Source: a virus (Duplodnaviria > Caudoviricetes). From it: a stretch of DNA of 64,000 bases. The stretch is from positions 1 to 64,000 of IMG/VR virus record IMGVR_UViG_3300021167_000098; one strand, written 5' to 3'. Shown here piece after piece: positions 3,226 to 40,000 of the stretch. The position numbers and the translations under genes were made by a program. The notes below the pieces were generated by a model. That model was not told the DNA's origin. It saw only the letters and a list, made by a program, of their open reading frames with translations, and did not search any database. How positions within the stretch are numbered: the first letter of the stretch is position 1; each line of letters begins with the position of its first letter.

Positions 3226-3226
3226 T

Positions 3227-3403: not shown

Positions 3404-3596
3404 TATAGATGATTTAATTCATGACTTAGCAGTTAATGAATTAATGGGAGAAATGGATGACTTCTTCCATGAGGAGTTTACTCTTTATATAAATGGAGAT
3501 TCTGATATTAAAGAAATTAAACCAGAATATGAAGATTTATATCATAATTATCTTAGAAAGTATAGAGAGATAGTTCAAAAAAATGTAATAAAATAA
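3387..3596 (+). CDS. hypothetical protein
   Basis: 69 aa ORF in operon context. Confidence 0.65.
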   Translation: MIQKVNIDDLIHDLAVNELMGEMDDFFHEEFTLYINGDSDIKEIKPEYEDLYHNYLRKYREIVQKNVIK

Positions 3597-3616
3597 TAGA
3601 ATAAAATAAATTAAAA

Positions 3617-6939: not shown

Positions 6940-8244
6940 ATGTTTATATTAAGCAAAGACAATTCAGAAAATTATAATGCAAGAGTATTTAAGTTAGATG
7001 CACCAGAAGTACATCCTAATGCAGATAAACTTCAAATATTCAGATTAAATCACCAACAGGTGATTACTAACCTGGATTACACAAAGGGAGAATTAGTAGT
7101 ATTCTTTCCAATAGGATGTTGTATTAATACAGACCTTGTAAGTTTCTTTAATGGTTTCTCTGATTCTTCTATGAATGCAGATAAAGTTACTAAAGGTTTC
7201 TTTGAGAAGAAAGGAAGAGTGAGGGCTATACGGCTCAGGGGTGAGAAAGTAGAAGGATTTATACTTCCAGCACAAGTAGTAATGGATTTCTTAAAGATCA
7301 ATTTACCTCCAATAGAAGGTACTATATTTGATTCTTATGGAGATATTATACTTTGTAAGAAATATGTAGCACCTAGTAAAAATAGTGGAACTAACTTAGG
7401 AGGAAGCAATAAGAAAAGAGAAAGATCATTAAAAGACATGATGATTGAAGGACAATTCAAATTCCATGTTAAAACTCCTAATCTTAAAAATACTACTAAA
7501 CAGTTAATGGGTTATAAAGACAGAAATGTATCTGTAACTTATAAAGTTCATGGAACTTCTGCTATATTTAGTAATGTATTAGTACAAAGAGTTTTAAGCT
7601 GGTATGAAAAGGTTTTAATCTATTTTGGTGTAAGTGTACCAACTACTGAATATAAGCCTGTATATGCCTCAAGACAAGTCATTAAAGGTACTGTTGATAA
7701 TGAATTACAAAAAGAAGGTTTCTATAAAACTAATGTTTGGAAAGAGACTTTTGATAGAATAATGGATAAAGGTGGAATACCTGAAGGTTATACTATCTAT
7801 GGAGAAATTGTTGGATTTACATCTGATAATGGCTACATACAAGGTAAATATGATTATGGATGTGCTGAGAAAGAAAGTAAACTTTTAGTTTATAGAGTTA
7901 CTCAAACTAATCCTGAAGGAAAAGTAATTGAATTAACCTGGGCACAGATTAAACAATTCTGTAGAAAGTATGATCTTGAGTTTGTACCTGAATTTTATGA
8001 AGGTAATTTAGGATTATTCTTGAAAAAGAACAAGATTACTAGTGAAGTTAAGTTAATTGAGAAGTTAACAGATTTATACAATCTTGAAGATAATTGCTAT
8101 ATGTGCAAGAACCCTGTACCAACAGAAGGAATAGTAATTAAAGTAGATGATTTAGATGAATGTTTAGTATTCAAATTAAAATCATTTGCTTTCTTACAAC
8201 TAGAAAATACTTTAGAAGAAGCAACTATTGAAGATTTAAATTAA
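6940..8244 (+). CDS. ATP-dependent RNA ligase (DRB0094/Rnl2-like) with N-terminal tRNA-binding OB-like domain
   Basis: HPNADKL...RLRG OB-fold motifs; KVHGT motif I, YGEIVG, EGIVIK, FKLKS. Confidence 0.88.
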   Translation: MFILSKDNSENYNARVFKLDAPEVHPNADKLQIFRLNHQQVITNLDYTKGELVVFFPIGCCINTDLVSFFNGFSDSSMNADKVTKGFFEKKGRVRAIRLRGEKVEGFILPAQVVMDFLKINLPPIEGTIFDSYGDIILCKKYVAPSKNSGTNLGGSNKKRERSLKDMMIEGQFKFHVKTPNLKNTTKQLMGYKDRNVSVTYKVHGTSAIFSNVLVQRVLSWYEKVLIYFGVSVPTTEYKPVYASRQVIKGTVDNELQKEGFYKTNVWKETFDRIMDKGGIPEGYTIYGEIVGFTSDNGYIQGKYDYGCAEKESKLLVYRVTQTNPEGKVIELTWAQIKQFCRKYDLEFVPEFYEGNLGLFLKKNKITSEVKLIEKLTDLYNLEDNCYMCKNPVPTEGIVIKVDDLDECLVFKLKSFAFLQLENTLEEATIEDLN

Positions 8245-8268
8245 GTTGTAGTTTAATAAGTGTGTTTT

Positions 8269-8296
8269 AAGGGAGGTGCTTTTGCCTCCCTTTTTT
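8269..8296 (+). terminator. intrinsic terminator
   Basis: gggagg-tgcttttg-cctccc hairpin followed by a T tract. Confidence 0.8.
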
Positions 8297-8317
8297 ATTA
8301 ACATAAAATAAAGAAAT

Positions 8318-8809
8318 ATGAGTAAAACAATAACAATTCTTGTTGCTAAATCTGGATCAGGTAAATCAACATATGCTAATCGGATTGTAATATCTAATCC
8401 ATGGACATTTATTATTAATAGAGATTCAATAAGAAGAGCTATTGTAGGAAACTTAGATAATTACTATGAAAGAGATAACATCAATGGATTAGAAATGATA
8501 GTTAATAATATAGAAGATGCATTATTTGAGAATTATGCTGAAAGAAATTATTCTATTATTATTGATAATACAAATCTAAAACAGAAGTTTGTTAAGAAAT
8601 GGATTGATTTAGCTAGATATTATCATTACAATGTAAGATTTAAGATATTTGATCTTCCTGCTGAAATATGTAAGGAAAGAGTAATGGAAAGAGATTTTGC
8701 TGGTAGAACAACACCACAATTAGTTGAATATATAGATATTCAAGATAAACAATTTCATTCTATTGTAGAATGGATTAATAAAAATTATAAAGATAAAATA
8801 TTAGAATAA
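8318..8809 (+). CDS. polynucleotide 5'-kinase (T4 PseT kinase-like P-loop)
   Basis: AKSGSGKST Walker A, INRDSIR, IIIDNTNL, CKERVMERD lid. Confidence 0.88.
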   Translation: MSKTITILVAKSGSGKSTYANRIVISNPWTFIINRDSIRRAIVGNLDNYYERDNINGLEMIVNNIEDALFENYAERNYSIIIDNTNLKQKFVKKWIDLARYYHYNVRFKIFDLPAEICKERVMERDFAGRTTPQLVEYIDIQDKQFHSIVEWINKNYKDKILE

Positions 8810-9489
8810 TGGAGAAGCAACAAGTTTGGCTATCAAGTGATTGGCACGGATTTCATAAAAATATTTGTAAAGGTTCATCTTCCTGGGATAGTAATAGAAA
8901 TGATAATAATGGTCAATCTTGTAGAGACTTTAAAGATGAATTTGAAATGACAGATGTGTTAATTGATACAATTAATAAATATGTTAAAGAAAATGATATT
9001 ATATATTTTCTGGGAGATTTTACCTTCGGGGGCTTAGATAAAATATATAAATTTAGAAAGAGAATAAACTGTAAAACAATACATTTCTTCTATGGCAACC
9101 ATGACCATCACATTGAAAATAATAGATTTATATTAGATGATAATGGAGATAAGATACAAATAGATAATCATGGAAATTTCTTAAGAACTCAAGATCTTTT
9201 TGCATCTGTTCAATATGTTGGAGAAATTAAAGTAAATGGAATTACTGTGTTTTGTTCGCACTATGCTCATAGATGTTGGAACAAGTCTCACAAAGGCAGA
9301 CCACATGCATATGGACATTCACATAATTCATTAGAATATGAAGAATGGGGCAAGAGCCTTGACGTAGGAATTGATTCTGCTTTTGCTAGATTTGGAGAAT
9401 ATAGACCATTTAATTTTAATGAATTTATGGAAATTGTAAACAAGAGAGATGTTAAAATTATAGATCATCATCAGTCACATACAAACTAA
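8809..9489 (+). CDS. calcineurin-like metallophosphoesterase
   Basis: SDWH, LGDF, GNHD, SHY, GHSH, DVGID. Confidence 0.9.
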   Translation: MEKQQVWLSSDWHGFHKNICKGSSSWDSNRNDNNGQSCRDFKDEFEMTDVLIDTINKYVKENDIIYFLGDFTFGGLDKIYKFRKRINCKTIHFFYGNHDHHIENNRFILDDNGDKIQIDNHGNFLRTQDLFASVQYVGEIKVNGITVFCSHYAHRCWNKSHKGRPHAYGHSHNSLEYEEWGKSLDVGIDSAFARFGEYRPFNFNEFMEIVNKRDVKIIDHHQSHTN

Positions 9490-9494
9490 ACAAT

Positions 9495-10781
9495 ATGAAA
9501 GAATTTAAAGATATAAATGGACATGAATTAGTAGATGGTAAATGGTATTGTGGAATAACTGGAATTGAATTTACTAAATTTAAAAAGTTAAATTCAGAAG
9601 GTAGTAATATTCATTTTTATGAATACATAACAAATGGTAGGCATGATAATGGTGGTAGTGGTAGACATGGTTCATTTTATGGTTTTTTTGATAAAATGTA
9701 TCCAGCTAATTATGATGATTATTCTAAGTATTTACCAAAAGGACATCTTGATTTAAAACCAAAAGAATTAAAAGATAATTTAAAAGTAGGTACATGGTAT
9801 TTTCATGGAATATTAGATAATAATAAACCTAGTTATTTAGGGAAGTTTCTTAGAATAGATGATCAAAATCAATTTCAAGCTTCTGAATATACTTTTAGTA
9901 GTGGGTCTAGTTATCATACTGATTTTATTAAAAATCGTTGGACAACTTGTTTATGGAAAGATAATCTAAGAGAAGCTACTCAAGAAGAATTAAATTCTAT
10001 ACTTCCAGAAGGACATCCTGATAGATCAGATAATATTCCTGAAGCTAAATTTAAAGTAGGAGATATTGTTGATTTAAATAGTGCTTATCTGCTCTCTAAT
10101 GGAGGAACATCAGAAAGTTATCCCTTACAAGGTGTTTTTGATTTAAAATGTTTAGCTAGAAGTAAAAAAGCTAAAATACGCAAAGTCTTTTATAATAAAG
10201 AACATCAAAGATATTGGTATGATACTGATTATTGCAGTAATCATGTATTAGAAGGACCTGAAATTACATTACATGGAGAAGTTGTTGCATCAGGAACATT
10301 ACCAGAATTAACAGAAGATAATATAAGAGATTATCATGGTTATGAAATAGAGTTTGAATATCTTAATAAATATACTGGAAAATTAAGTATTGAACAAGGA
10401 AGAATATTTCTTTTAGAAAATGAACATGGACATAATAATGGACATAAATTATTTAGAGATGAATATAAATATAGTGTTGTACTTGATATATCAAATAGTA
10501 ATATCAAACAACATAAGATTAAATTAATCAAATTTGATAAATTTATTCCTTCTTATTATACACCAACACCTGAATTATATTCTGCAATAAAAGATGAAGA
10601 GATTAGATTACACAAAGTACCTAACTCAAACATACAGATAAGAACAATTAATATACCAACAGTTGAAATACAAAGAGTTGATTTAAAACAACAAAATCAA
10701 TTAAGAATACAAATACCAGAGGTTAAACCTCAAAGCATCCAAAGAGTAATAATTAATAACAAACATTTAAAATTAAATTAA
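9495..10781 (+). CDS. hypothetical protein with tandem ~85-aa repeats
   Basis: 428 aa; two units G[KT]WY...KF...EY...LP[KE]GH[LP]D. Confidence 0.75.
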   Translation: MKEFKDINGHELVDGKWYCGITGIEFTKFKKLNSEGSNIHFYEYITNGRHDNGGSGRHGSFYGFFDKMYPANYDDYSKYLPKGHLDLKPKELKDNLKVGTWYFHGILDNNKPSYLGKFLRIDDQNQFQASEYTFSSGSSYHTDFIKNRWTTCLWKDNLREATQEELNSILPEGHPDRSDNIPEAKFKVGDIVDLNSAYLLSNGGTSESYPLQGVFDLKCLARSKKAKIRKVFYNKEHQRYWYDTDYCSNHVLEGPEITLHGEVVASGTLPELTEDNIRDYHGYEIEFEYLNKYTGKLSIEQGRIFLLENEHGHNNGHKLFRDEYKYSVVLDISNSNIKQHKIKLIKFDKFIPSYYTPTPELYSAIKDEEIRLHKVPNSNIQIRTINIPTVEIQRVDLKQQNQLRIQIPEVKPQSIQRVIINNKHLKLN

Positions 10782-10783
10782 AC

Positions 10784-11161
10784 ATGGCTAAGGCTAAAAC
10801 AACAAACAACACGTACAGAGGATTAGTAACAAGATCAAAAGAAGAGATTGATGGAGATCAGTTAGAAATTAACATTCAACATGCAGAGAATGATTTAGAA
10901 ATTGGCATAAATAATATTTATGGTCAAGTAATAACTGCTGAGGGTAATCTTAAGAAGAACAGAAGTAAGATAACAAGAGCTGAACAATCTTTAAATGATG
11001 CTAAAGCTGCTTTTCCACTAAATGTTCAAAACATCTTAGATAGAAGAACAGAGTTGTTACAAGAAAGAGCTAATATTGAAGCTGAAGAAGCTAGATTAAC
11101 AGCTATTAAGGAAACTCATCAATATCTTTTAGATTTGAAAACAGAGTTGTTCCCTTCATAA
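10784..11161 (+). CDS. coiled-coil hypothetical protein
   Basis: 125 aa heptad-rich ORF. Confidence 0.75.
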   Translation: MAKAKTTNNTYRGLVTRSKEEIDGDQLEINIQHAENDLEIGINNIYGQVITAEGNLKKNRSKITRAEQSLNDAKAAFPLNVQNILDRRTELLQERANIEAEEARLTAIKETHQYLLDLKTELFPS

Positions 11162-11188
11162 AAACTTGTTTTTTATGTTAATAATTGT

Positions 11189-11221
11189 AGAAAGGATACT
11201 GTCATGGTATCCTTTCTTTTT
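11189..11221 (+). terminator. intrinsic terminator
   Basis: agaaaggatac-tgtcatg-gtatcctttct hairpin plus T tract. Confidence 0.8.
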
Positions 11222-11235
11222 AAAAAGAAAATATT

Positions 11236-11451
11236 ATGAATGATAGACATATTTATGAAGGTTGGACAGTACAATCATTTATTGATGAATTAGAACCACA
11301 ATTCAATATGATAAATCAAAACTCCAGTTGGCAGAAAGGATTTGAATCATATGATGATTTAAAAAAATGGTGTAAAGATAACCAACCTTATTATAAGAAA
11401 CATATACCAGAAGTATATAACCATTTTAAGAAGAAAGTAAAGTTATTATGA
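11236..11451 (+). CDS. hypothetical protein
   Basis: 71 aa ORF, ATGA overlap with the next gene. Confidence 0.7.
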   Translation: MNDRHIYEGWTVQSFIDELEPQFNMINQNSSWQKGFESYDDLKKWCKDNQPYYKKHIPEVYNHFKKKVKLL

Positions 11452-12170
11452 GTTATAAAACATACCTTACAGGAGGTGCGGTAAGGGATCAATTACTAGG
11501 ATTAAAGTCTAAAGACTTAGATTATGTATTTGTTTTTGATAATCCAAAACAATTTACATCAGCAGAAGAAGCATTTCAAGAAATGGAAAGAATAATAATA
11601 GCAGATGGAGGAGAAATATATTTATCAACTCCAGATTGTTATACTATTAGATATAAGGATGGTGTTACAGGAGAAGCTAAAGATATAGTACTTGCAAGAA
11701 AAGAAACTTCTTATATTCCAGGCACAAGAAAACCAGTTGTAGAACTTGGTACATTGTGGGATGACCAGGTTAGAAGAGATTTTACTTTAAATAGTATGGC
11801 TATGGATAAGAATGGTAAAATAGTAGACCCTTTTAATGGACAAGATCATTTAAATCAAAAAATATTATATACTCCATTGGATGCTGATATAACCTTTAAT
11901 GATGACCCATTAAGATGCTTACGTGGAATTAGATTTTCTATTACAAAAGATTTTAGAATGTGTTCTGATATATTGGAAGTTATTCATACCTTTGATTATG
12001 AAAGTAAGTTTTCTGTAGTTTCAGAAGAAAGAATAAGAGAAGAATTATATAAGTGTTTCAAACATGATACTTATAAAACATTAACATTATTAGCTTCTTT
12101 TCCCAAGTTAGAGAATTATATATTTACTAAAACAAATCTTTGGTTAATGCCAACATTAAAAGAAAAATAA
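11448..12170 (+). CDS. cca: class II tRNA nucleotidyltransferase (CCA-adding/poly(A) polymerase family)
   Basis: GGAVRD, KDLD, DQVRRDFTLN, DPFNG, FNDDPLRCLRGIRF, VSEERIREEL. Confidence 0.9.
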   Translation: MSYKTYLTGGAVRDQLLGLKSKDLDYVFVFDNPKQFTSAEEAFQEMERIIIADGGEIYLSTPDCYTIRYKDGVTGEAKDIVLARKETSYIPGTRKPVVELGTLWDDQVRRDFTLNSMAMDKNGKIVDPFNGQDHLNQKILYTPLDADITFNDDPLRCLRGIRFSITKDFRMCSDILEVIHTFDYESKFSVVSEERIREELYKCFKHDTYKTLTLLASFPKLENYIFTKTNLWLMPTLKEK

Positions 12171-20430: not shown

Positions 20431-23400
20431 TTAGTATTGATAGTCTTCATAAAGATCATTTACCATGTTACTATTAGTAACTATTTGTCTGGTAACTGGA
20501 GCTGTTTTTGCCCAATTCTTCATTGTTCTTTCTATATCATCTGCATCTGTATCATTCATTGGATTCATAATATCAGCTGTCTGATAAATAGCTTTCTGAA
20601 AATCTGTTATTATCCTTAATGAAGGTATTGGATTACTGGTAATCTCTTTAAATGTACCTACTGAAGTATAGAACTGAACATCATTTCTTAGTCTATAAAG
20701 TAAATTCATAGTGCCTCCTAATGCCATTTTCTTATATTTATCATCATCTGTCATTGAATTATACAACATTTTTAAAGATATATAAAGCATGTATAAACTA
20801 ATAATCATAACTCCATCAATAGCTAATCTTCTGATATTATAAATATCTCCTTCCTCCATATTCTTGATGTTACTCATAGCATCTGACCATTTACCTATCC
20901 AAGTTCCAGCACCAGAATTATCTTTTAATGCTTTCATCTCTCTATATAATCTAGGTAATGCTCTTATTCTACCTTCTAATCTAGCACCTAATATCTCATC
21001 TTCTCTTGAATGGTTATAAGCAGAGTTTAAACCTTCTGACATCCAGGATGCTTTAAATTGACCTAATGCTCTTCCTAATGCAAATTTATTAGAGAATTTA
21101 GCTGATTTAGTATCAGTGTTACCATGAACTCTTCTACTTAATGCAAGTAGTTTCTGAATCATGTCTATCTGTTTATCTTTATTCCATTCAGGTACTTGAG
21201 TCTCATCTATTGTTCCATCTTCTTTAACTAAAGACCATAATGATTTAGGTCCATTAATTGTTTCTATTTGATCATGCATTAATGATCCAATAATAAGCTG
21301 TCCTTTCATAAAGAAGTCAGAAGATCTCATCCACATAAACATTTTATCATAAGATACTCTTTGTCCTTTACCATAGTTGGCTTCCATAATATCAAAGATT
21401 AAGTTATTCTTTTCCAAGAAGTTAACTATCTTTTCTCTCTTTTTATTCTTACCACCTTTGCCCCAAGTTAAGAAGTTATTAGTTGTAGATAACATTTCTT
21501 TAAGTGCTGCACTACATTCCTTAACATTAAGAAATTGTCCAACAAGTGCTTCCTTATAATTAGAAAGAACTCCAAAGTTTAAGTTAGTTATAGGAGATAC
21601 AAATGATAAACCCATGGTTTTTAATTGTGTTACTTCTATTCCCCAATCTATAAATTTACTGAAAGAACTTCTCTTACCATCTAAATCTTTATATTCTTTT
21701 TTATAATTATTGTATGAATTAATAACATCCCAGGCTTGTTGTATTTCTTCAGCTCTGGTTGTAGGATCAGCAGCATCACTTAATTCTTCTCCTCTATCTA
21801 ATTTCTCAATATATCCTCTATACATTGGTTCTATAGCCATAGCTTTTTCTTTAATCTCTCTGGCTTTCTTTTTCTTATCAGAAGTTAATCCAAATACATC
21901 TTTATTTTCAAAGACATTATCCCCCCAAAAATCATTCTTATTAGCTTGATCTGGATCAGCTCTATACATATTATATACACCAGCTTCTACAGCATAGTTG
22001 GTTACTTTTTTAGTTGTACTAAGTCCTACATTCTTATATCCACTATTAGTAGATTCTTTAGCTTGATTAACCATATATAATTGTAACTCAGCAGCATCAG
22101 CTATTTCATTACTAAATCTAAAGGATTCTACTTGTGTTATTAATAACTGCATAGTTTTCTTTAAATCAAGAGTATAAGAAGTTTCAATCTCTTTTATTCT
22201 TTTCTGATAAATGTTTCTATCTTGAGGACTAATGGTTGGATCTTCAAGTAATGCTTCTAAGTTTAATCTTTCTTTATCTACATCTAAAAATCTCTCATAA
22301 CTAATTTGTTTTAATGGATTACCTAATTCATCTACTTGGTTAATATGTTCAAAATTATGTTGAACTGCTACTGCATCAACAATAGCAGTATTAGTTTTTA
22401 ATCCACTAATTCCATTATTCATAAATGATTCCCAAGCTGTAGCTTGCATTTTAACAAAGAAATCTACACCTACTTCTTTACTTGCATCTGGAGGAAACAG
22501 CCTTACTGCTTCTTTCATATACTCAGTCATGAAGTTATATAGATTTAATAAATTTTCATTAGCTAGAACTTCTTTAAATTGATTATCATAATGCTCAGGT
22601 TTACTTGGAGCATAAGCTGGTAATCTATCAAAATCTCTTGTTTTAGATATTAATTCAGCTATTTCTGGATCAATATTAGCTTCATTATGAATAGAATCAT
22701 AATACCAAAATGGATTATTTGCATATTCCCATTCATCCATAGCTGTTTTAAATGCTTCATCATCTCCAATATGTTTTTCTTCAAGATATAATCTCCATTC
22801 AGTTTGATCTTTGTAATATCTATTTACTCTATTCTCTCCAGTTTTAATTCTTGATTCAGCATAGTGATCATTACCAACAGCTGCTTTAAATTCATCTATT
22901 ATTCTTTGTCTTTCCTCTGGAGTAGTTCCAGACATAAATGCTGCTGGATTTAAAGTAATTGTATTCTCTTTATACCAGGTAGTTCTAGCTTCTTTAGCTT
23001 TCTTAATACCTTTATTAAATGCATAATAAACAATCTCTGGTTCATTAAGTGCTGGGTCTAAAGCTGCTTCTCTTGCAGCATCTATTGTTGCATCAATATA
23101 TTCTTTATTTAATTTAGAAGATAAGTACATTAAATCTTTAGCATCTTTAAATGCATCTGCTCTTCCTCCACTAACTGCTTGTAATACAAGTTTAGTTAAC
23201 TGTTCTTTAGTAGCAGGATCAAAGAATAATTTAACTTGTTCTCCAACTTTCTTTCTAGCATCATAAAACTCATCATTAACTTCATAGATAAAATGATTTC
23301 TCATTGTTCTACCTTTGGCATCTTTCTTAAATAACTTGTCAAAATCTAAATTGGATAGCTTCTCAAATAATTTATTTGACTCATCTACTTTTCTCTTAAC

Positions 23401-26271
23401 TTCAAGTTCTTTCTCAATACCCATTCTTTCAATCTGATATCCAATATATCTGATCATCTTATTCCTACTCTGTTTAATATCCAGAATATTTAATAAGAGA
23501 CCATCTTCATCTAATTGTTTAATATCATCAGAAGATAAGTTATATTTAGTCTTACTGGATTGTTCTTTCATATAATCTACAATCCTGTTATATACAGCTA
23601 ATTTTAATGTATTAGCTCTATTCTCAAGTAATCCTATTTCAGCTGATACATTGTCTACTTCAACAAACTGTCTAAAATCTTTCCACATCTCAGCACTAGA
23701 TAGAATGTTTCTAAGTTGTGCAGGACTAAGATTATCTTTATCCATTGCTTCTTCAGAGTCTGTTAAACTCTCTTCAGCTAGTAACTGAAGTATTTCAATC
23801 TTTTCATCAGTTGTGTCTGCTTGTTTATATTTATCTATCTCTGACTGATAAAGATCAATCTTCTCTTGTATCTTAAATTTATTAAGAGAAGGATTATTTT
23901 TAAGTAGTTTTAATCTATTTATTAAAGATTTAAATCTAGCTATTACCTGAGCATCATCTCCTCTTTCTTTACTTACTTTAGGTACAGTAGCAATTGAATC
24001 ATAGTCTTCTTCATAAGCTAATGCATCACCAGCATTAGGTTTAAATTCATATGCTGGTTTAGGTTTATTAGCTTCTCTTAATCTAATACCAGTATTAACA
24101 CCTTCTAAATTAACTTCATTCCAAGTATTACCATATTCATCAGTAATTTGTGGTACTTTAGGTTTAATACTTTCTTTTACAAACTCTTTAAATCCTTCTA
24201 TATCTTGTTTAGAACCTAATTCATGTAAATTTTTTGATGTCGTAGCATATACATTACCTGATTCTTTTGTTCTACCTTTATCTACACCTTTTAATACCAA
24301 ATCTTGTAGTTCATTTTTTACATATTCGGTATTCATTTCTCCAACATTTTTAACACTACTTGTGTTAATTAAAAATGTATTTACTATTTCTTTTCCACTT
24401 TTAGATATAAACCCTTTGTCAAATGCATATTCCTTTGCATAACTTAGTTTATCAGTAAAAAACCCTCTTGTCTGAAAATTAGTTCTTCCTTTTTCACTAC
24501 CTCTGTAAACAATTGTATTGTTTGGGAAAATAGTATCAAGATATTTAGAATATAGTTGTTGAGCTTGTTGTTTTTGTTGTGGGGTTATTTGAGCTTCTAA
24601 ATTAACACTATAGGTAGATTCTAAAAATCTATCAAAATTACTCTCTAAAAAATCTAAATCTGTTTTAGCTATACCTAAGAATTTAGCAATTAGATGTTTA
24701 AGCTCTTGCCATAGGGTAGTTTCTTTTAATTTATTTCTAAAATCTGGATTAGTCATCGACATAGTTAGAAATTCATCCAAGTTAGTAAGTCCATAAAACT
24801 TAAATTGTCTATCTGCTACAAATTCATAATCTTCTTCAGATACATTTTCTCTATTACTTTTTATTTCTTGTTGTATTTCAAGATATTTTTTAAAGTCAGA
24901 TTTACTATCTTTAATTTCTTCATTATATAGCTTGTAAGCTAGATTTTCGATATTTCTTATAAATTCATTTCTTTCAAGAGATGTAGTGGCTTTTTTAGTA
25001 AGAGCATGAACTATTTCATGTAAAATAGTTTGCTCAAGCATAAATTCAGCATTATACCCTTTTATATTGCTTCTTTTTATAATTCTGTCTATATTTATAT
25101 TTATAGAATTTGTAGATAAAATGTAATTTCCATTTACAGACAGATTGTTATTTTCTATAAGGTTTACTTCTTTTAGTTCTTTAATTTTAAGAAAAGTATC
25201 AGCTAACCTTTTATAATTTGGATTTTTTGTATTGTTAGAAATAGATTTTAATAATGAATCTGTACTTTCAAAATTATACTTAGATTTTACATCTTGATAA
25301 AAAATATCTTTCTCTTTTTTATAATCTGTTTTTTCAGTAAACCCAGCAGCTTCATATATTTGAGAAGCTAATTCAGGATTAGAATCAAATAGTTCTTGTA
25401 CTCCTTCTTTAACTTCTTGATTTATAATTTCTTTTTTTGAATTATTACTAACAAACTCTTTAAATCCTTCAATATCTTTTTTAGAACCTAATATATGGAT
25501 TTGTTCTGGTTCAATAACTAAATATTCATTTAAACTTATTACTCCATCATTAACTTTGTTATTTCTTTGTTTTATATAAGCATTTTGTTTGTTTTCAGAT
25601 AACTTGTCTATATTATCTTCTAATACAATAGGATTTTTTATATTTATTAAAACTGTATGTAAAGTTGGAGCACTACCGTTTTCTGTATAACTTCTTGCCC
25701 ATTCTTTATCAGATGTAAATGTAATACCTTCTCCTAATGAGGGAGATATTCCTTTTTTTATAGGATAGTTCTCAGGAGTTCCTCTATAAACAATCTCCTT
25801 TACTTTACTATCTGGAAATATAGTATCTAAATAATCTGAATATTGTTGTTGTGTACCTATCTTAGATAATTCAGAGTTTTCTTTAAATATATTATCTACT
25901 CCTTCTTTTACAGCAATGGAATCAAAATCACCTTGTTCATCTCTTTTTTTTACCTGTTCTCCTTTGATCTTGGAAAGGCTATCAGCATTATAACTAATAA
26001 CTAATGATCTTACAGTAGGAGAATTGTATCTGTATGATATAGGAATACCTATCTTATCTACCAGACTACTCTTGATATCCATCATAAAATTAGCAATATT
26101 ACTCTCTGGATTAATTGGTTCTACAATTAAATGAGTAGTGGCATAATCAGTAGTATGATAGCTGGTATTTACAGAAAGAGTTACACCATTATTTATGGCT
26201 AATTCTTTCATTTTATCTGATCTTAATAAAGATTCAATATTCTTTATATTTTGTTTATCACAATGTTGCAT
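20431..26271 (-). CDS. large virion ejection (polyvalent) protein with two ART-like modules and a zincin metallopeptidase
   Basis: 1946 aa; YRG...FT...A..Y ART-PolyVal-like units; HEIVH...EF zincin; position after the vRNAP gene as in crAss-like phages. Confidence 0.8.
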   Translation of the reverse strand: MQHCDKQNIKNIESLLRSDKMKELAINNGVTLSVNTSYHTTDYATTHLIVEPINPESNIANFMMDIKSSLVDKIGIPISYRYNSPTVRSLVISYNADSLSKIKGEQVKKRDEQGDFDSIAVKEGVDNIFKENSELSKIGTQQQYSDYLDTIFPDSKVKEIVYRGTPENYPIKKGISPSLGEGITFTSDKEWARSYTENGSAPTLHTVLINIKNPIVLEDNIDKLSENKQNAYIKQRNNKVNDGVISLNEYLVIEPEQIHILGSKKDIEGFKEFVSNNSKKEIINQEVKEGVQELFDSNPELASQIYEAAGFTEKTDYKKEKDIFYQDVKSKYNFESTDSLLKSISNNTKNPNYKRLADTFLKIKELKEVNLIENNNLSVNGNYILSTNSININIDRIIKRSNIKGYNAEFMLEQTILHEIVHALTKKATTSLERNEFIRNIENLAYKLYNEEIKDSKSDFKKYLEIQQEIKSNRENVSEEDYEFVADRQFKFYGLTNLDEFLTMSMTNPDFRNKLKETTLWQELKHLIAKFLGIAKTDLDFLESNFDRFLESTYSVNLEAQITPQQKQQAQQLYSKYLDTIFPNNTIVYRGSEKGRTNFQTRGFFTDKLSYAKEYAFDKGFISKSGKEIVNTFLINTSSVKNVGEMNTEYVKNELQDLVLKGVDKGRTKESGNVYATTSKNLHELGSKQDIEGFKEFVKESIKPKVPQITDEYGNTWNEVNLEGVNTGIRLREANKPKPAYEFKPNAGDALAYEEDYDSIATVPKVSKERGDDAQVIARFKSLINRLKLLKNNPSLNKFKIQEKIDLYQSEIDKYKQADTTDEKIEILQLLAEESLTDSEEAMDKDNLSPAQLRNILSSAEMWKDFRQFVEVDNVSAEIGLLENRANTLKLAVYNRIVDYMKEQSSKTKYNLSSDDIKQLDEDGLLLNILDIKQSRNKMIRYIGYQIERMGIEKELEVKRKVDESNKLFEKLSNLDFDKLFKKDAKGRTMRNHFIYEVNDEFYDARKKVGEQVKLFFDPATKEQLTKLVLQAVSGGRADAFKDAKDLMYLSSKLNKEYIDATIDAAREAALDPALNEPEIVYYAFNKGIKKAKEARTTWYKENTITLNPAAFMSGTTPEERQRIIDEFKAAVGNDHYAESRIKTGENRVNRYYKDQTEWRLYLEEKHIGDDEAFKTAMDEWEYANNPFWYYDSIHNEANIDPEIAELISKTRDFDRLPAYAPSKPEHYDNQFKEVLANENLLNLYNFMTEYMKEAVRLFPPDASKEVGVDFFVKMQATAWESFMNNGISGLKTNTAIVDAVAVQHNFEHINQVDELGNPLKQISYERFLDVDKERLNLEALLEDPTISPQDRNIYQKRIKEIETSYTLDLKKTMQLLITQVESFRFSNEIADAAELQLYMVNQAKESTNSGYKNVGLSTTKKVTNYAVEAGVYNMYRADPDQANKNDFWGDNVFENKDVFGLTSDKKKKAREIKEKAMAIEPMYRGYIEKLDRGEELSDAADPTTRAEEIQQAWDVINSYNNYKKEYKDLDGKRSSFSKFIDWGIEVTQLKTMGLSFVSPITNLNFGVLSNYKEALVGQFLNVKECSAALKEMLSTTNNFLTWGKGGKNKKREKIVNFLEKNNLIFDIMEANYGKGQRVSYDKMFMWMRSSDFFMKGQLIIGSLMHDQIETINGPKSLWSLVKEDGTIDETQVPEWNKDKQIDMIQKLLALSRRVHGNTDTKSAKFSNKFALGRALGQFKASWMSEGLNSAYNHSREDEILGARLEGRIRALPRLYREMKALKDNSGAGTWIGKWSDAMSNIKNMEEGDIYNIRRLAIDGVMIISLYMLYISLKMLYNSMTDDDKYKKMALGGTMNLLYRLRNDVQFYTSVGTFKEITSNPIPSLRIITDFQKAIYQTADIMNPMNDTDADDIERTMKNWAKTAPVTRQIVTNSNMVNDLYEDYQY
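24179..25492 (-). repeat. 42-bp direct repeat pair (24179-24220 and 25451-25492) encoding LGSK[QK]DIEGFKEFV
   Basis: 40/42 nt identical by direct comparison. Confidence 0.9.
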
Positions 26272-26274
26272 TAT

Positions 26275-28029
26275 TTATTCTTTAATTTGATTTACAGCAG
26301 CTGCTCCAACTACTCCAGGTAATAATTTTATTAGTGCTCTTTTAGTTTCTTGTGAAGTTTCTTTTTTGAAAAATCTATTAAGATCTTGTACATTAATCAA
26401 TTCATCTATTAGTTCATCTGTTGGATATTTAAATTGACCCATAACTTCTTCAATTGTTGCATTCTTTCTGACTAATTTTGCTCTTTTAAGATATTTATCA
26501 ACTAAATTTTTTCTAGCAACCATTAATTCAGAATGTAATTCCATTGGAGATGCTTCCCAAGTTGATACTCCTTTCTTAGGTTCAACCATAGCATCAGCAA
26601 ACAATCTACCTGTTTCTGTATCTTTGTTAGCTGTAAAGTATGGATTTACATCATCTCCATTTTTTGTTAAAATACCACTCCAATCATTTACATGAGAGTT
26701 GTATGTATCTATATTTCTTTTCATACCTAATCCACCAATTTTTTGCATTGAATGCCCAAGTTCATGTGTAGCAATATCACTAATAAGTTCTGGTGAATAT
26801 TGAGCTAAACCTTTATTTCTAAGTGTAATACTTTCATTATGATTTGTGTTCACCCCACCTATTCTGTCTTTATTTTTTAATATATAGTCTCTAGTATCTT
26901 CTGTTAAAGATTTATCTAATTGATTAGTTCTACTTGAGGTTAATATATTATTAGCTTCTTTTACAACTTGGTTATTTTCTAATTGTTCAAGAGGTCCGTT
27001 TTTAATTTGTTTTACTTTTAAAGTGTTATCTGAAATTGTTGGATTATGAAATTTATTATTATTATATAAATCTTCAATTTTTTGTGCTACATCCCCTTTT
27101 AAATTACCATTTTGATCATACACCCATTTATCTACAAAATCTAAACCTTCTTGAAAAGCTTTATCTTGTTTTATTTTAGATATATCTCTTTGCGCTTTTG
27201 TTATAGGAAATATTTCACTAAATGATCTACTCTCTTTAGACATAAGTTCTTTAACTCCAGCTTGTATTCCATTAATATGATCATTAAGAGAACTATTAAA
27301 ATTAGAGGTTTTATTATTTACTTTATTAATAACTCCTTCTAATAAATTTTCTTTTGGTATATTTTTTATAACATCATCAGTGTGTTCTAATACTTCATTA
27401 ATTCCACTCATGGCTTTAGCTCCCTTGGCTATTGGAATATTTAAAGGGTCTAATACAACATCTTGTCCTAATTCAGATCCTAATACTGTACCTACTATTC
27501 CTGCTCCCCCAGGTAAGTTACTAGCTGCATCCATTACTTGATCAAACTTAGTTCCTTTAAGAGCTTTAGAAGGTTGAGTTTCTCTACCATCACTACCTAT
27601 ATAAGTAGCAGCAGCTTGTGGTAAAGATAATGCAGCACCTATACTTTGTCCTATTGCACCCATAAAACTTTCTGCTTTTGGAATATTATTTCCCCACATT
27701 TTGAAGAATCTACCTACAGTTGGTTTAGCAGCATCTTTAATAACAACTTCATCTAATTCAGGAGCTACTAAAGTGTCATTACCTATATCTTCCATAATTA
27801 CAGGTTTCTTTTTACTGGGTGGATCTCCAGGAATTACTGTACCATCTTCAGCATAATCTTTAAGTTGAGGTAATGTTTGAATATATTTGTCTATTTCAGA
27901 ATGTTTACCTAATAATATTCTATTTTTAACCCAATCTCTTTTATTTGCTGGAACAATAGTGTGATCTCCATGTGAATTTTTGAGAATTAATTCCATTCCC
28001 TCACCTTCAATTTTAATACTTTTAAACAT
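26275..28029 (-). CDS. putative ejection protein with C-terminal zincin-like metallopeptidase
   Basis: 584 aa; HELGH (26752-26766) and downstream ELHSE; TAATG-coupled to the vRNAP gene. Confidence 0.72.
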   Translation of the reverse strand: MFKSIKIEGEGMELILKNSHGDHTIVPANKRDWVKNRILLGKHSEIDKYIQTLPQLKDYAEDGTVIPGDPPSKKKPVIMEDIGNDTLVAPELDEVVIKDAAKPTVGRFFKMWGNNIPKAESFMGAIGQSIGAALSLPQAAATYIGSDGRETQPSKALKGTKFDQVMDAASNLPGGAGIVGTVLGSELGQDVVLDPLNIPIAKGAKAMSGINEVLEHTDDVIKNIPKENLLEGVINKVNNKTSNFNSSLNDHINGIQAGVKELMSKESRSFSEIFPITKAQRDISKIKQDKAFQEGLDFVDKWVYDQNGNLKGDVAQKIEDLYNNNKFHNPTISDNTLKVKQIKNGPLEQLENNQVVKEANNILTSSRTNQLDKSLTEDTRDYILKNKDRIGGVNTNHNESITLRNKGLAQYSPELISDIATHELGHSMQKIGGLGMKRNIDTYNSHVNDWSGILTKNGDDVNPYFTANKDTETGRLFADAMVEPKKGVSTWEASPMELHSELMVARKNLVDKYLKRAKLVRKNATIEEVMGQFKYPTDELIDELINVQDLNRFFKKETSQETKRALIKLLPGVVGAAAVNQIKE

Positions 28030-31000
28030 TATTTCTTTTTTGAATCATTTAAATAAATTCTATCATAAATTTCAAAAGGTTTTCCTTGTTCTGGAATAGG
28101 AAATTCTAATGACGGATTTAAATTCCACTTATCATAGTAACTAATATATTCTCCCTTTTCATCCTTACCCTTACTAATTTTAAAGTTTCTAAATACTAAA
28201 TTACTAGGTTCTTGTACTTGTTTGCTTTCACCTTGTTTTAATGTAGTTCCTTCTTTTTTAATAAAATCTACAATTTCAGGATACGATTTACTCACACTTA
28301 AATAATTAGCTTTAGGATCTGTTGAAGTACTTGGCTTATGATTAGAAACCTCAAAAGTATTAAATCTTTGTGGATTTCCAGTATATAATGCCCAAGCATC
28401 ATCAGCTCTTTTAAAATGAGGTTTTGCTTCTTCTTTATAACGAGCCTGTTCTTTAGCTGAAAGTTTTCTAAAATCTTCAGGTTTACCTTTATACGTTATT
28501 GGTAATGGATTCTCTACATTAATATCTCTATTCTTATCTGTAGTAATTAAACCTTTGACACCTTGCATTATTGGAGGCATTATGGAATTATAGGGAGTTA
28601 CATTTTTATAAATTTTATCTCTCACTACTTTATTAACTCCTAACTGTTCATCTAATATTCCAGTTTCCTTTAATTGTTGAGCTGGAGTACCTTTATAATT
28701 AGTATTGTATCTATCTCCATTGTATAAAAATTGTTCATCTCCAGACTTACGAGCTTTAGCATAGGCTGAATCAAAATCTTTTTCATTAGAAAAATCATTT
28801 AATCCTATATTACGAGGATCTAATTTATCTTTAATATTATCTATAATATCTTTTTTAGGTTTAATAGTTTGATTAAATTCTGCTATTGGTCTAACAATAT
28901 TAGTGGACTCAGAAACCATAATATTATCTTTAATCATTCTATCTAATCCTGGAATTTTCTTTTTAGGAGGATTAGTAGGATCTTCTCCATCAGGTATGAT
29001 CATACCATCCTCAGCTTTAGGGATCACTAATCCATATTCAGCTTTAATTTGAGTTTTACCATTATGCATAGTAACTCCATCTTTTCCTATAGATAGATCA
29101 ACTCCTCCTTTGGCATGTGTTGGGTATCCTTTCAAGTCCTTAACTATTTTCCAAGTTCCACCTTTAGTAAAACCTTTAGGTTTCATACCATCAGCAGCCT
29201 TAAATAAACCTCCTCCAGGTCCACATTTTTTTATTTCAAGATCATTAAATATATCTGATGCTTGTGTTTTAATTGATTCAAATGTATCATTTATTAATTT
29301 TGGACTATCTCCTGAATTATCAATTCCCAATTCTAATAATTTAACATCTAAATACTCTTGATGTTGTTTTGGTAACTTAGCTTTTAATCCTCCTTGTCCA
29401 ATTCTATAATCTCCAATTTTTAAAGTTTTAAAATTAGATAAGTCTTTTTTAATCTGATTAATTTCATCATCTATTGTTTGTTTAAACAAATCAAAGTTAG
29501 AATCTGTCCAATTAGTGCCATAAGCACTCATTGTTGATATTGGATAAGCATTATTTAATCCTCTAATAACAGCACTTGTTGGATTATTAATAGATCCAAA
29601 ATGTAATGGTTTATTAGTTTGAGATTTATATTTTTTATAATACCAAGTATTACTGTCAATATTATCAGAAGCTGCATTAGGAGCTGATGTTCTTTGTGCA
29701 TTATCTGTAAATAAATACATTGATTCATTATCTTCAGCAACAGAATTTCTTGTATATCTAGTATTTATTACTTGTATATTAGAAGAATTATTTGATGTAG
29801 ATTCTATATTTACTTTTTCTTGAGGATAAGTATTCTCAAATAAATCTACTATTGCTTGTTGTCCAGCTTCATTTATATTTCTAGTACCAACTCCTGCAAA
29901 CCTTTCTGATAACACTGGAATATCTATTTTAGTTATTGTTCCTTTAGTATATTTATACCATTCTTGTCTTGACTGATCAAAAGCATATACTGGTTTACCC
30001 ATATCATCTGCCATAATCATAGCATAAGCTGTTCCACCTTTAGGTATAACTTTAAATGTTTTCTGACCTATAACCTTCATTCCTTGTTTAGTCTTATCAA
30101 ATACAGTCTCAAATCCTTCAATTATTGCATATACAGAATCTCCAGCTTTAGCTTGTAAGTAATCTCTTCTAACAAGTTTAGCTGAATACCTCTTACCTTT
30201 ATCTTCATTATCTAAACTGATTACTTGTCTTCCAAGATAATTAACTGCTCTTACATATGCTTGTTCAACTTCTTCTGCTTGTACAGGAGTTAACTTATCA
30301 TAAGTCTGAGGAGTATAATCTACTGTTCTTATACCAAACTGTTTACCAACCTTTTTAAACTCTCTATCAGTTCCAGGTGCATCCCCTGAATAAATTACTT
30401 TATCTTGTGTTTTGGATGCCCAGATTGTACTTGTTTTATTCAATTCTACTTCTTTATTATCACTTACAACATTGTAAGATTCAGCTAATGTATGTGCTAA
30501 AACATTATTAGGATTAACTGTAATACCAAATGATTCAAGTATAGTTCTGAATAATCCTTCAAATGCCTCTACAATTCTTTCTAAGAAAGATTTAACTTCT
30601 GGTTTAGATGCCTTAATCTCATTAAGAACAGTCTGGAAGTTATTATCTGACCAAGCCATTGTAACAAACTCCTGAACATTAACTAATCCATAATACTTAG
30701 CTTTCATCTGTGGTGTAATACCAGAGGTAGTTGTATTAATAGATTTGTTATTAGGAGATTCTAATACAAAGTTGATTGTATCCTGCAAAGATAAGATTTT
30801 ATTAGCATTTTTAACTTCATCTTGCTTTAATAAATTCATATAATTTCCAAGAAACTCAGTAAGTTCTTTTTTATTATTCTTTCTAGCAGCCTTTAAAGCA
30901 TCTTTTCTAAGTATATCTAATCTTTTAATTGATATTCTTTGAGCTTCAGTTACAGAATTAGGATCTTTCATGTATCTTTCAACAATAGGATTAAATGCTG

Positions 31001-37000: not shown

Positions 37001-40000
37001 CAATAAGCTCTGTCTTAGTAGAAGGTATATTTCCTATATTAGAAAATAATACTCCAATAACACCAGATTTATTATTAAAGACATGACTCATATTATTTCT
37101 TTCCCATCCTTCAGCTATCTTAGCATACTCATATGGATAATCAATAATAGATTTAATCTCATCAGTTACAACATCTATTCCTAATTGATTAAGTAATCCA
37201 GCTATTTGTTCAGCATAAACAGCAGAGTTTGGAACTTCACCATATACTTCTTCAAATTCATAATATTGATTAGTAAGCTCTATATAATCTTCTTTAATCT
37301 TGTTAACTTTATCTGCATTAATTAGATAAGGTTCTGACTCTGAGTTGATTACCATATTGTTATTAGGATCTTCAACTATATCCATAAATGCACTTTGCCA
37401 TTTAGATACCATCATTCTACCTCCACTAACTCTATCAGCATCAATTATATTAGCTGAATATTCTCCTCCTTTAGAGTTCCAAAGCATAATACCAGTCTTA
37501 TTCTTATGCAAATTAAAGACTGTTCTAAATTCATTCTTGGCACTCATATCCCATTTCTCTATATCATCAGCAACTAAATTTAATACTCTAGACTGATTCT
37601 TCTGCTCTCTAAGGAATTTAACTGCTTCTCCTACTGTCATATATGGTTTATTAGCTAAAAGCTGTCTAATCAATCCATATGTGTTCTCAGGATCAAGATA
37701 TCTATCAAATCCCATTTGTGTTTCTCCATCTCTTATTAAAGCAAGTTTAGATTTTAATCTAAAGGATGCTCTATCTCTATCATCTATATCAAAGATAGAA
37801 GTATCATATCTTTCAACAGCTCTACCATTCTCACCAGAGAAATCCAAAGCTTCCATTTCATCTATTGCTAAATTACCTACTTGTTTACCAGTTATTTTAA
37901 GACCCATAGCCTGAACCTTAGCAAATGCTAAACTCTCTAACTTATTGTAATAAGAAGGCATATCCTTTAATATTGGATTAGTTTGGTTAGGAATATATTT
38001 TTCAAAATAATATTTCTTAACACTAGCTAAGTTATCACCTATATTTTTAATAGGAGCACTTTTAGCAGTACCATTAAACCTAGTCATTATTCTAGCTGCA
38101 AAGTCATTAACTAAATCATCTTTTAATGAATCAGTCATACCTGGATAATCAATAGTATATGTATCTAATAATGCTTTATTCTTATCATCATCTACAATAA
38201 TAGATTCATAATCTTCTGTTGCAATAGAGAAATCATCATCAGGTACAGGTTTAGATTTCTCTTCTGTAGCTGAAGTATCAGTATTTGTAAGATTATTTAA
38301 AGCAGCTAATTCAGCATTACTTTCTTGTTCAATCTTTTTACTTAAAGCTCCTTGACCATAAAATGATTTAGCATCATATATTACATAAAATGGTGCAACT
38401 TTAGTATTACCTATAATATGATTACTTACTCGAACACCTTTTACATTTGGGTTAGACTTTTGAAAATCTGTAAATAACTCCATAGCTGCTCCAGGTACTT
38501 CAGATAAAACATCATTAGTATCATGAATCTCAGAAAATATATAACCTTGTTTTTTTAATTCTTCATATACTTCTTTTTCAGTTTTTGAAGCATTTATTTT
38601 AACAAAATCAGCATCATTGACTTCACCTTGTATTGGTTTACCATATCTACTAACTAGAAATGAAGTGGTATTTGATGATGCGTTTAAACCATCACCAAAT
38701 TGACTAACTTGTTTATTCCCTCTTTGAAAATTATTAAAGTTAAAGTCTTTAGTATCGACATTTGTATGATGATACATAGGTTTGACATTTGCTAACCTTT
38801 CTTTCTTTTTTTGTAGTATATCAGCTTTTTGAACTTCTTTATTAGCCTCTTGAGTGGTTGTTCTTCCTAAAGCAGCTAATTCTGCATCATATTTATCATT
38901 GATTTTAAATCTTTCTCCTGCTATAAGCCCTTCATAAGAATCAATTCTATTACCTGTAACTAGCTGCCTTACCCCAGTTCTTTTAATTTCACCTTCTGCT
39001 TGTTTTTTTAATTTATTTAATTCGGATGAGTATCTTTGCTCATTATTATTTAATTCTTCTCGTCTTCTTCTTTCTATATCAGCTTTTTTATCTTGTTCAA
39101 ATTGATTAGATTTAGGTTGTTGTTCTAATGCTTTTAATTCTGCATCATATTTAGCATTGATTTCTTCCAAATATAATTTGGCATTTTCAAAAACTTCTGT
39201 ATATGTTTCCTTAAATTCTTTAGCCCTTTTATAACTATCTTTATTAAGCTTTCCTCCAGGTTCACCTAAGCTAATATTTTCATGTTTTCTAAGACTATTT
39301 ATTAAATGTCCTAAATCATTTACATGAAGTAATTTTTCTACCCATTTTTCTTTAGTTAATTTATTTTTATCTATTTCAGGTAGAAGTTCAACTACATCTT
39401 CTAATTCTTCTTGTCTTCTTCTAGCTATATCTTCAATTATATTAATTGCAGCACCAGGATCTAATCTTAGAGGAGCATCATGTTTCTCTCTTAACCATTC
39501 AGCTTCTCCTTCTTTATATTCAGAAGATTCTTCAATTGCTTTAATATCTGCTTCTGCATTCATAGCTGCATCAAAGTCAGAATTATCCACTATTGAATCC
39601 CCCATTTGTAATCCATAATCAAGATTAAATGTAGCTTGTTCATGGAATATCCATTCTCCATTAGGAGCTTTAGTTGCAAGAATATCAGTAGCTGAATTAT
39701 CAGCAAACATAGCCAAAGGAGATTTAACTACTTTCTGTAAGACTCCTTTGTTTAATTTAATAGTTTCTATGTCAACTTTAGAATTAGTATTAATCTTTAA
39801 TACATTCACCTTAGCATCAGCAATATAAGCTGATATAGCACTCTTGATACTCTCAGTTAATTTATTATCTATTAATGCATCAGGCTTAACAAAATCATTT
39901 TTAGTTGGTTTCTTATTCTTATGTTTGAATACAATTTGTCTTTCACCAGTAGATTTATCTTCACTTAAATCTATATGATCTGCTATTGGTAACTTAGTAT

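Follow-up and report, generated by a model that had tools for sequence, protein, structure and literature searches.

Analysis of a 64,000-nucleotide (nt) stretch of phage DNA (hereafter the window; positions 1 to 64,000 of the Caudoviricetes record IMGVR_UViG_3300021167_000098, part of a 94.5-kb viral record; G+C content, 27 to 33%) revealed a gene for a 1946-residue protein (20431 to 26271, minus strand) that is probably a polyvalent virion protein of the cargo or ejection type, in which recombination at conserved sequence brackets would reshuffle the effectors. Its product consists of an N-terminal domain, an array of two units built around ADP-ribosyltransferase (ART) cores, and a long body. 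Among the weapons of a phage, polyvalent proteins are believed to enter the host first, and to our knowledge the rapid change of their domain sets still lacks an explanation. Here domain turnover is caught in the act: whole slots differ between phages that are 99 to 99.9% identical, and lineages with very different dinucleotide signatures have in common, at 98% identity, an ART cassette of 404 nt. Each exchanged unit is marked by short conserved brackets.

Two ART-like units share three brackets

Residues 120 to 702 make up two units (residues 120 to 278 and 286 to 702) with the same grammar: bracket A (VKEGV..F..NPEL), slot 1, bracket B (QQ.YS.YLDTIFP, then IVYRG), an ART core occupying slot 2, and bracket C (IHILGSK.DIEGFKEFV). 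The motifs VKEGV, YS.YLDTIFP, IVYRG and GSK.DIEGFKEF fall at residues 121, 144, 160 and 262 in unit 1 and at residues 287, 574, 587 and 686 in unit 2. A first-pass annotation of this DNA had described two modules with such a three-motif scaffold, and all motifs were found at the coordinates that it gave.

Hidden Markov models (HMMs) of the brackets delimit the parts, all on the minus strand. In unit 1, bracket A (VKEGVDNIFKENSEL..IG, two short helices; 25834 to 25914) is joined straight to bracket B (QQQYSDYLDTIFP; 25804 to 25866), both at E 6e-14, followed by ART core 1 (residues 157 to 256; 25504 to 25803; E 5e-19 with a family-derived HMM) and by bracket C (EQIHILGSKKDIEGFKEFV, the last strand and a helix; 25438 to 25506; E 8e-16). 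In unit 2, bracket A (VKEGVQELFDSNPELASQIYEA; 25348 to 25416; E 6e-12) precedes a 258-residue putative zincin metallopeptidase that fills slot 1 (24574 to 25347); bracket B, with a pre-B extension (ITPQQKQQAQQLYSKYLDTIFP; 24514 to 24588; E 3e-12), ART core 2 (24235 to 24513; E 3e-6 with the family HMM) and bracket C (NLHELGSKQDIEGFKEFV; 24166 to 24234; E 7e-13) complete the unit. As had been proposed, the insertion lies between ELASQIYEAAGF (residue 300) and ITPQQKQQAQQ (residue 562), about 250 residues apart, at the point where unit 1 has only the turn SKIGTQ and its slot is empty. The segments between YRG and LGSK, which had been taken for diverged ART-PolyVal-like domains, align at 35% identity over 139 residues (E 2e-11), and the model of unit 1 described below agrees with that assignment.

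The three HMMs matched nowhere else in the window, in keeping with an independent family. In a pool of 132 proteins they matched 122 to 125, and the brackets nearly always followed one another as ABC or ABCABC. A single ABC unit is the form found in 90 of 125 proteins; where C is followed by another A, no more than 7 residues separate the two in 20 of 32 cases.

Close relatives differ by replacement of whole slots

A search with the body (residues 720 to 1946) yielded five proteins that are 98 to 99% identical to it and have N-terminal regions unrelated to that of the window protein, and three more at 43 to 51%. On the 98 to 99% identical bodies, the cargo amounts to 37 residues in P0122, 230 residues in P0123 and about 1000 residues with AAA_33 kinase domains in P0124 and P0126. 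In P0129, the body of which is 43% identical, the N-terminal domain is fused straight to the body, representing an empty site, and P0127 (body 51% identical) has the N-terminal domain, then about 950 residues of other cargo, then the body.

Breakpoints were located in pairs of closely related contigs. L002 is 99.6% identical to the window in nucleotide sequence from 24057 to 14431, and holds the window's 26288-25862 (93%) and 25849-24536 (99.4%; ART1 and the zincin) in another gene, two genes upstream, that encodes P0130 (1029 aa). In unit 1 of P0130, 342 residues with two P-loop motifs stand between A and B, where the window's slot is empty; identity breaks just after VKEGV (about nt 25896) and picks up at LDTIFP (about nt 25842). 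In unit 2, identity spans the zincin and stops inside bracket B, between YS.YL and D (nt 24536), past which L002 has a 90-aa C-terminal domain instead of ART2. L004 and L005, which come from different samples, are 99.9% identical and collinear for more than 11 kb on both sides of one segment. This sole exception (410 versus 350 nt) lies exactly between IVYHGS and EQIHILGSK, i.e., it is the ART core.

The ART2 cassette was also found in distant company. The 404 nt from the pre-B extension through C (24581-24178) are 98.3% identical to L191, a contig that otherwise matches the window only by two short bracket stretches of 42 and 52 nt and whose observed/expected CG ratio is 0.70, versus 0.035 for the window. 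The ART2 core recurs at 89% amino acid identity in L111, where slot 1 is empty, at 99% in P0003 and at 81 to 87% in P0004-P0009, which display four unrelated slot-1 fillings. Judged from these matches, ART2 behaves as a mobile cassette.

All breakpoints but one lie in, or a few bases from, a bracket, and despite limited breakpoint precision the exchanged unit is the whole slot in every case. The proposal that effector cassettes are exchanged within a conserved scaffold is thus supported by near-isogenic relatives that differ by whole-slot replacement with breakpoints at the scaffold motifs. Empty sites, which the first-pass annotation had named as a check, occur both for the whole array (P0129) and for slot 1 next to an ART2 core (L111).

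GIY-YIG homing-endonuclease genes lie beside large cargo genes in several relatives (L003:183-827; L004:1524-2204 and 4198-4923; L005:577-1257 and 3191-3916). They stand between or directly before the cargo genes, and one overlaps the start of the P0126 gene. In the open reading frame (ORF) list of the window, no counterpart was noticed at those positions, no aimed test having been made. As a speculation, such nucleases could supply the breaks that start exchanges and promote local mosaicism.

Slot 1 takes many families, slot 2 mostly ART cores

Of 149 pooled units, 87 had nothing in slot 1 and 62 had a filling of 109 to 737 residues; these fillings formed 26 BLAST-distinct clusters. Among 118 unique units from IMG/VR loci, 68 were empty and 50 filled, with 31 clusters. 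Overall, of about 250 units, about 40% have a filled slot 1, with about 30 unrelated domain families among the fillings; the commonest are the window's HExxH domain, P-loop domains and a weakly GNAT-like family. Pfam searches with 20 representative fillings gave almost nothing above noise, the largest cluster having a sub-threshold GNAT/FR47 hint. Slot 1 is a real multi-family insertion site, which the unit 1 model places in an inter-helix turn.

Slot 2 contains an ART core in 230 of 234 units and a P-loop kinase in L015 and L020. In P0124 and P0126, the AAA_33 kinase is followed by bracket C, and by this bracket the kinase stands in slot 2. What happens in slot 2 is mostly that one fast-diverging ART core takes the place of another, in the manner of allelic replacement. 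Of the earlier claim that the scaffold has two variable slots, the part concerning slot 1 stands, and the suggested catalogue of contents across genomes provides the evidence for it; the claim does not extend in the same sense to slot 2, where a divergent ART core is almost always found.

The brackets furnish a search rule, namely to take whatever sits between A and B. Applied to the approximately 250 units, the rule returns the 30 or so sequence-unrelated families, most without a Pfam match. They are candidates for effectors that uncultured phages, the abundant crAss-like ones among them, would inject.

Bracket-like sequences were also seen outside complete units. The motif M[AS]C.I.Y.G.KY[ST]..EF opens several alternative cargo proteins (N termini of P0122-P0124, P0126 and P0128; L004:2201-2270; L002:6001-6060). 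This opening looks like a bracket C (strand, turn, helix) at the very N terminus, and BLAST aligns it to the GFKEFV part. A conserved linker, SLNKPNTNPILQGNQ, can stand after bracket B instead of ART strand 1 (L002:3435-3735; L015:6880-7000; end of L122), followed by either a P-loop kinase or a C-terminal domain of about 90 residues (KGG.WK..KDLKGYPTH..GGVDL) that is also present at the end of the 665-aa protein of L004/L005. At L101:2384-2927, a related ART unit hits stop codons just inside bracket C, and it may represent a frameshift or a decayed copy.

The brackets are parts of an extended ART-PolyVal unit

The AlphaFold model of unit 1, based on 69 homologues, had a predicted local distance difference test score (pLDDT) of 90.4 and a predicted template modeling score of 0.84. 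In this model, bracket A forms helices at residues 11-17 and 19-24 (pLDDT about 95), bracket B forms a helix (27-37) that runs into strand 1, and bracket C forms the last strand (144-146) and a helix (150-160; pLDDT 94 to 98 for C). Foldseek matched the model to the cyanophage A4 pre-ejectosome protein (E 5.6e-5) and to PARP1 (E 4e-4), and VIA gave moderate Z scores of 7.5 to 8.1 over about 104 to 123 residues with many PARP chains. By this model, unit 1 has a PARP/diphtheria-toxin-like ADP-ribosyltransferase fold. The structural matches end at residue 149 of the model and the C helix is outside every ART-fold match, arguing that this helix lies beyond the canonical ART core.

When a profile of the whole unit was run against 1.84 billion proteins, 4918 cluster representatives were found, most of which cover the unit end to end; 759 reached E ≤1e-30. 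On the evidence of the model and the profile, the brackets thus belong to the fold of an extended ART-PolyVal unit that is widespread. The first-pass annotation had named as the reading that would undo its own that the motifs are simply integral to one ART domain, duplicated once, with the same architecture in all homologues. The motifs are indeed integral to one extended fold by the model; the architecture, on the other hand, is far from invariant. Among 81 units, the mean pairwise identity is 60% for A, 77% for B with strand 1, and 70% for C, versus 23% for the core. Conservation is three times higher in the brackets than in the catalytic core, which raises the structural question of why the flanking helices of an enzyme domain should be so much better conserved than its core.

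The Pfam family ART-PolyVal (PF18760) matched ART1 at 20.7 bits, below its 31.2-bit cutoff (E 8e-4; residues 161 to 252), and gave no match to ART2 in the Pfam scan. Judging by the position of the match, the Pfam model seems to begin after A and B, the best-conserved parts of the unit. The two units are 35 to 57% identical to units of proteins that carry PF18760; through these threshold-passing relatives and the family-derived HMM, the sequence link is clear, and we assign ART1 and ART2 as divergent ART-PolyVal homologues. With residues 100 to 720 as the query, 501 large proteins of 1070 to 3400 aa were recovered, many of which carry Pfam ART-PolyVal together with NADAR, LysM, kinase, helicase, nuclease or AlkB-type domains.

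The active site of ART-PolyVal consists of a His in strand 1, a Tyr in strand 2 and an Asp in strand 5 (Iyer et al., 2017; PMC5512222). The corresponding positions of ART1, R163, T184 and D242, read R-T-D, and those of ART2 read R-F-D, such that the strand-5 Asp is kept in both. In 69 relatives, the three columns contain His in 61 and Arg in 7; Tyr in 39, Phe in 15 and Thr in 1; and Asp in 62, respectively.

The filling of slot 1 in unit 2 is a putative zincin

The HEIVH motif (residue 418; 25006-25020) lies within the inserted segment, where the first-pass annotation had placed a zincin. The H, E and H of the motif are the same in all 7 homologues compared, and acidic residues downstream are invariant too. 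For these 7 homologues, the matches of the segment to Pfam are weak and sub-threshold, with SprT-like at 16.9 bits (E 0.006) and Tox-MPTase3 at 15.7 bits (E 0.018), and a profile search of the segment against solved structures gave nothing significant. The AlphaFold model of unit 2 has a mean pLDDT of 66, and its zincin part is poor (32 to 70). The filling belongs to the commonest slot-1 cluster (18 of 62), and the arrangement A-zincin-B-ART-C recurs in relatives, conserved down to 27% identity. Among proteins of 141 to 452 aa, no stand-alone version of this filling was found apart from one fragment.

Bracket DNA forms islands of identity in a CG-depleted gene

Recomputation confirmed that the two copies of bracket C (24179-24220 and 25451-25492) are identical at 40 of 42 nt and that those of bracket A (25399-25410 and 25897-25908) share 12 of 12 nt. 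In bracket C, 12 of 14 shared codons are identical versus 8.4 expected from protein constraint and codon bias (P = 0.03), and no excess nucleotide identity beyond these two factors was detected for the A and B motifs. The idea that selection at the nucleotide level on the brackets is demonstrated was therefore dropped, the excess being marginal for C and absent for A and B. Unrelated contigs match each other only in bracket-coding DNA, at 78 to 94% over 36 to 95 nt, and bracket A of unit 2 appears as islands of 78 to 85% nucleotide identity in otherwise unrelated phage contigs.

The entire window contains 49 CG dinucleotides versus 1403 expected (ratio, 0.035). The gene has exactly five, as had been noticed, versus 114 expected from base composition, and all are in slot contents: 25677 in ART core 1, 24948 and 24757 in the zincin, and 24327 and 24241 in ART core 2. 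At the window's rate, five CGs in 1437 nt have a probability of 0.005. CGs of the window cluster at 1-2000, 8001-12000, 24001-26000, 28001-30000 and 38001-40000. Related phage loci are often CG depleted as well, with a median ratio of 0.25 and several below 0.05.

Recombination at the brackets and its alternatives

We propose the following mechanism. The carrier, consisting of the N-terminal domain and the 1200-aa body, would be housed in the capsid and probably ejected with the DNA, and an array of host-directed effector domains would be spliced between its two parts. This array is built from extended ART-PolyVal units in which the A and B helices and the strand-helix of C are far more conserved than the core. 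Strong codon bias on top of protein conservation turns the brackets into islands of 40 to 90 nt with 80 to 95% nucleotide identity between otherwise unrelated phages, and homologous recombination between co-infecting phages would cross over in those islands. An exchange from B to C would swap an ART core for another ART core, rarely for a kinase, and the loop between the A and B helices would gain, lose or swap a nested domain, here the putative zincin and in relatives P-loop, GNAT-like or other domains. The vehicle would stay constant while the effectors that it delivers change quickly. The bracket grammar, the fold, the mosaic junctions and the range of fillings are shown by the data. The positions of the junctions point to recombination as the mechanism. 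Synteny with the cargo genes of ΦcrAss001 and the structural match to a pre-ejectosome protein suggest packaging and injection, and the ART units and the HExxH domain are predicted from their sequences to be enzymes.

Several points weigh against this explanation or parts of it. BLAST identity tracts tend to end in conserved motifs by construction, which makes the location of breakpoints in brackets partly circular. The relatives are all metagenome assemblies, and the exact 1946-aa arrangement of the window is without a second assembly. The homologue pools were gathered through bracket or ART similarity, which inflates both the conservation of the flanks and the share of ART cores in slot 2. 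The conservation of bracket DNA is almost fully explained by protein constraint and codon bias, and the brackets may merely be where recombination can occur, rather than sequences selected for it. Lastly, the HExxH domain of slot 1 is a putative zincin, by its motif and sub-threshold Pfam matches, and both ART cores are without the His and Tyr of the family; with these residues replaced, ART activity is uncertain, and the cores may be inactive or altered in activity.

A stronger version of the proposal, which we put forward tentatively as a possibility, is that A, B and C form a dedicated modular scaffold, a protein-level counterpart of the integron, conserved for plugging injected effectors in and out at one site in a surface loop and at another that replaces the ART core. 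If this were true, the 30 or so unannotated slot-1 families would amount to a rich and so far unused source of enzymes for host takeover or anti-defence, open to harvest by simple searches between the brackets.

Somewhat unlikely in our view is that the brackets are kept for a function at the protein level, as cleavage sites for the zincin or a prohead protease or as packaging or ejection signals, with exchange as a passive by-product. The threefold higher conservation of the brackets relative to the core and the lack of a clear synonymous-site excess fit with such a function, as do the presence of bracket C after a kinase and of a C-like strand-turn-helix at the start of several cargo proteins; moreover, zincin domains have been proposed to process polyvalent proteins (Iyer et al., 2017; PMC5512222). 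In contrast, the A and B helices and bracket C are confidently folded into the unit in the model, which would be unusual for a protease site. This reading overlaps with recombination at conserved brackets and differs from it only in the reason for bracket conservation.

It is most improbable that the mosaics are assembly chimeras, generated by an assembler that jumps between co-occurring phages at repeated brackets. Such an artifact would be favored by the assembled nature of every sequence compared, by the single assembly of the window's arrangement, and by the position of the junctions in repeated conserved sequence, which makes in-frame joins automatic. However, the identity of brackets between cassettes is 80 to 95% over only 36 to 95 nt, which we judged too short and imperfect for long-k-mer assemblers, and the contig name of one relative (k141_) suggests a final k of 141. 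Furthermore, variant cargo on the same body comes from several independent sources (Logan, JGI and ENA), several variants have 2 to 4 member sequences, and L004 and L005 combine origins in different samples with more than 11 kb of collinearity on both sides.

Least credible of all is a plain tandem duplication of one ART-PolyVal domain with a zincin between the copies by chance, in which old divergence and gene-level rearrangement would replace cassette dynamics. In its favor, the brackets are integral to one fold, the usual and widespread form is A-B-ART-C (a single unit in 90 of 125 proteins; 4918 representatives) and A-zincin-B-ART-C is itself recurrent. Against it, pairs that are 99.4 to 99.9% identical differ by clean whole-slot replacements, ART2 is 98% identical in nucleotide sequence in an otherwise unrelated phage, and slot 1 beside ART2 may be empty or hold any of at least five different fillings. 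The near-isogenic swaps and the shared ART2 cassette have largely refuted this reading already. Mutagenesis by a diversity-generating retroelement was rejected, the differences being whole-segment replacements and not scattered substitutions.

Relation to known systems

The gene resembles those for phage-type polyvalent proteins (Iyer, Burroughs, Anand, de Souza and Aravind, 2017, J Bacteriol; PMC5512222) in that it encodes a giant multidomain protein among virion genes, with ART-PolyVal units, of which there are sometimes several, beside an HExxH peptidase-like domain. Packaging and injection are likewise predicted for that class, the architectures of which vary widely between relatives. With several predicted effector-type domains in one polypeptide, encoded by a phage gene among virion and late genes, the 1946-aa protein can be placed in this class by sequence. 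The ART units are homologous to ART-PolyVal (PF18760; Tox-ART-HYD2 clade), with which they share a PARP-like fold and the strand-5 Asp, and differ from it by a sub-threshold score and by the replacement of the strand-1 His by Arg and of the strand-2 Tyr by Thr (ART1) or Phe (ART2).

Earlier publications have described the polyvalent protein class and the ART-PolyVal family and have put forward the idea that ARTs are injected. What appears to be new relative to Iyer et al. is the set of three brackets, the insertion loop in the N-terminal helices of the ART, the roughly 30 families of fillings, and recent swaps between 99%-identical phages. Linkers, shuffling and crAss-like phages did not come up in a term search of that paper, and "recombinational variability" is raised there only as a possibility, for kinase cassettes.

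Polymorphic toxin systems (Zhang et al., 2012, Biol Direct; PMC3482391) also combine a constant delivery part and a short junction with effectors that are exchanged by recombination, and in both systems the junction is a handle for finding new effector domains. In those systems the variable parts are C-terminal tips, whereas here they are internal, bracketed on both sides, and in one case nested in another domain. The vehicle here is a phage particle and not a secretion system, such that the analogy is one of mechanism, not membership. In the ORF list, neither immunity genes nor silent spare cassettes were noticed beside the gene; no search was aimed at them.

In ΦcrAss001, mass spectrometry of virions detected large proteins whose genes adjoin those for RNA polymerase, and the virion cargo proteins gp45-gp50 were proposed to be ejected ahead of the DNA (Bayfield et al., 2023, Nature; PMC10172136). 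The protein studied here resembles this Crassvirales cargo in its large size and in the place of its gene, which adjoins virion RNA polymerase genes where the late block ends. Sequence similarity to named Crassvirales is only weak, and a one-to-one orthologue in ΦcrAss001 was not identified. Variable arrays of enzymatic cargo are not discussed in the available text of that paper.

Genomic setting and carrier parts

The large minus-strand genes of the window encode, in order, proteins of 1821, 766, 1061, 5419, 584 and 1946 aa, a crAss-like layout. This block ends facing a plus-strand block, which in the contigs of relatives contains thymidylate synthase, metallophosphatase and DNA ligase genes. 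The 1946-aa gene is the final large gene, after that of the 5419-aa giant protein, and the matching gene of the Crassvirales member cr55_1 occupies the same place, as the final large gene behind that of a giant protein of about 4550 aa. Synteny around the gene is kept in the orthologues in relatives' contigs.

The conserved head of the carrier, an N-terminal domain starting with MQHCDKQNIK (residues 1 to 119; 25915 to 26271, minus strand, as are the linker and body), was delimited by homology. It is 56% identical to the N terminus of P0129 and 41% identical to that of P0127, and its coding DNA is 93% identical to the start of a different L002 gene; no match to this domain was found in Pfam or PHROG. 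Comparison with relatives defined a linker of about 36 residues (24058 to 24165) between the cargo array and the body, which is present in a diverged form in P0122 and missing in P0123, P0124 and P0126. The conserved body, likewise delimited by homology, starts with PAYEFKPN (residues 739 to 1946; 20431 to 24057). It gave weak tblastn matches to the named Crassvirales cr55_1, cr1_1 and cr4_1 (22 to 25% over about 350 to 400 aa), and no relative by sequence among solved structures. Searched as a nucleotide sequence, the gene had no match among named phages; protein searches found the weak Crassvirales matches, and PHROGs has no family for the 1946-aa protein or its 584-aa neighbor.

This neighbor (26275-28029, minus strand), which also lacks a Pfam family, has its own HELGH motif near the C terminus. 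Its N terminus resembles that of a 753-aa L002 protein, P0131, which has HELSH; the middles of the two proteins differ. Farther along, the DNA for the last 400 or so residues of the 5419-aa giant protein (28001-29257) is 96% identical to part of an L004/L005 protein gene, the counterpart being the C-terminal part of a separate protein of 665 or 645 aa, and the giant gene of L002 stops at the point matching window position 29224. These comparisons indicate that cargo genes fuse and split between close relatives.

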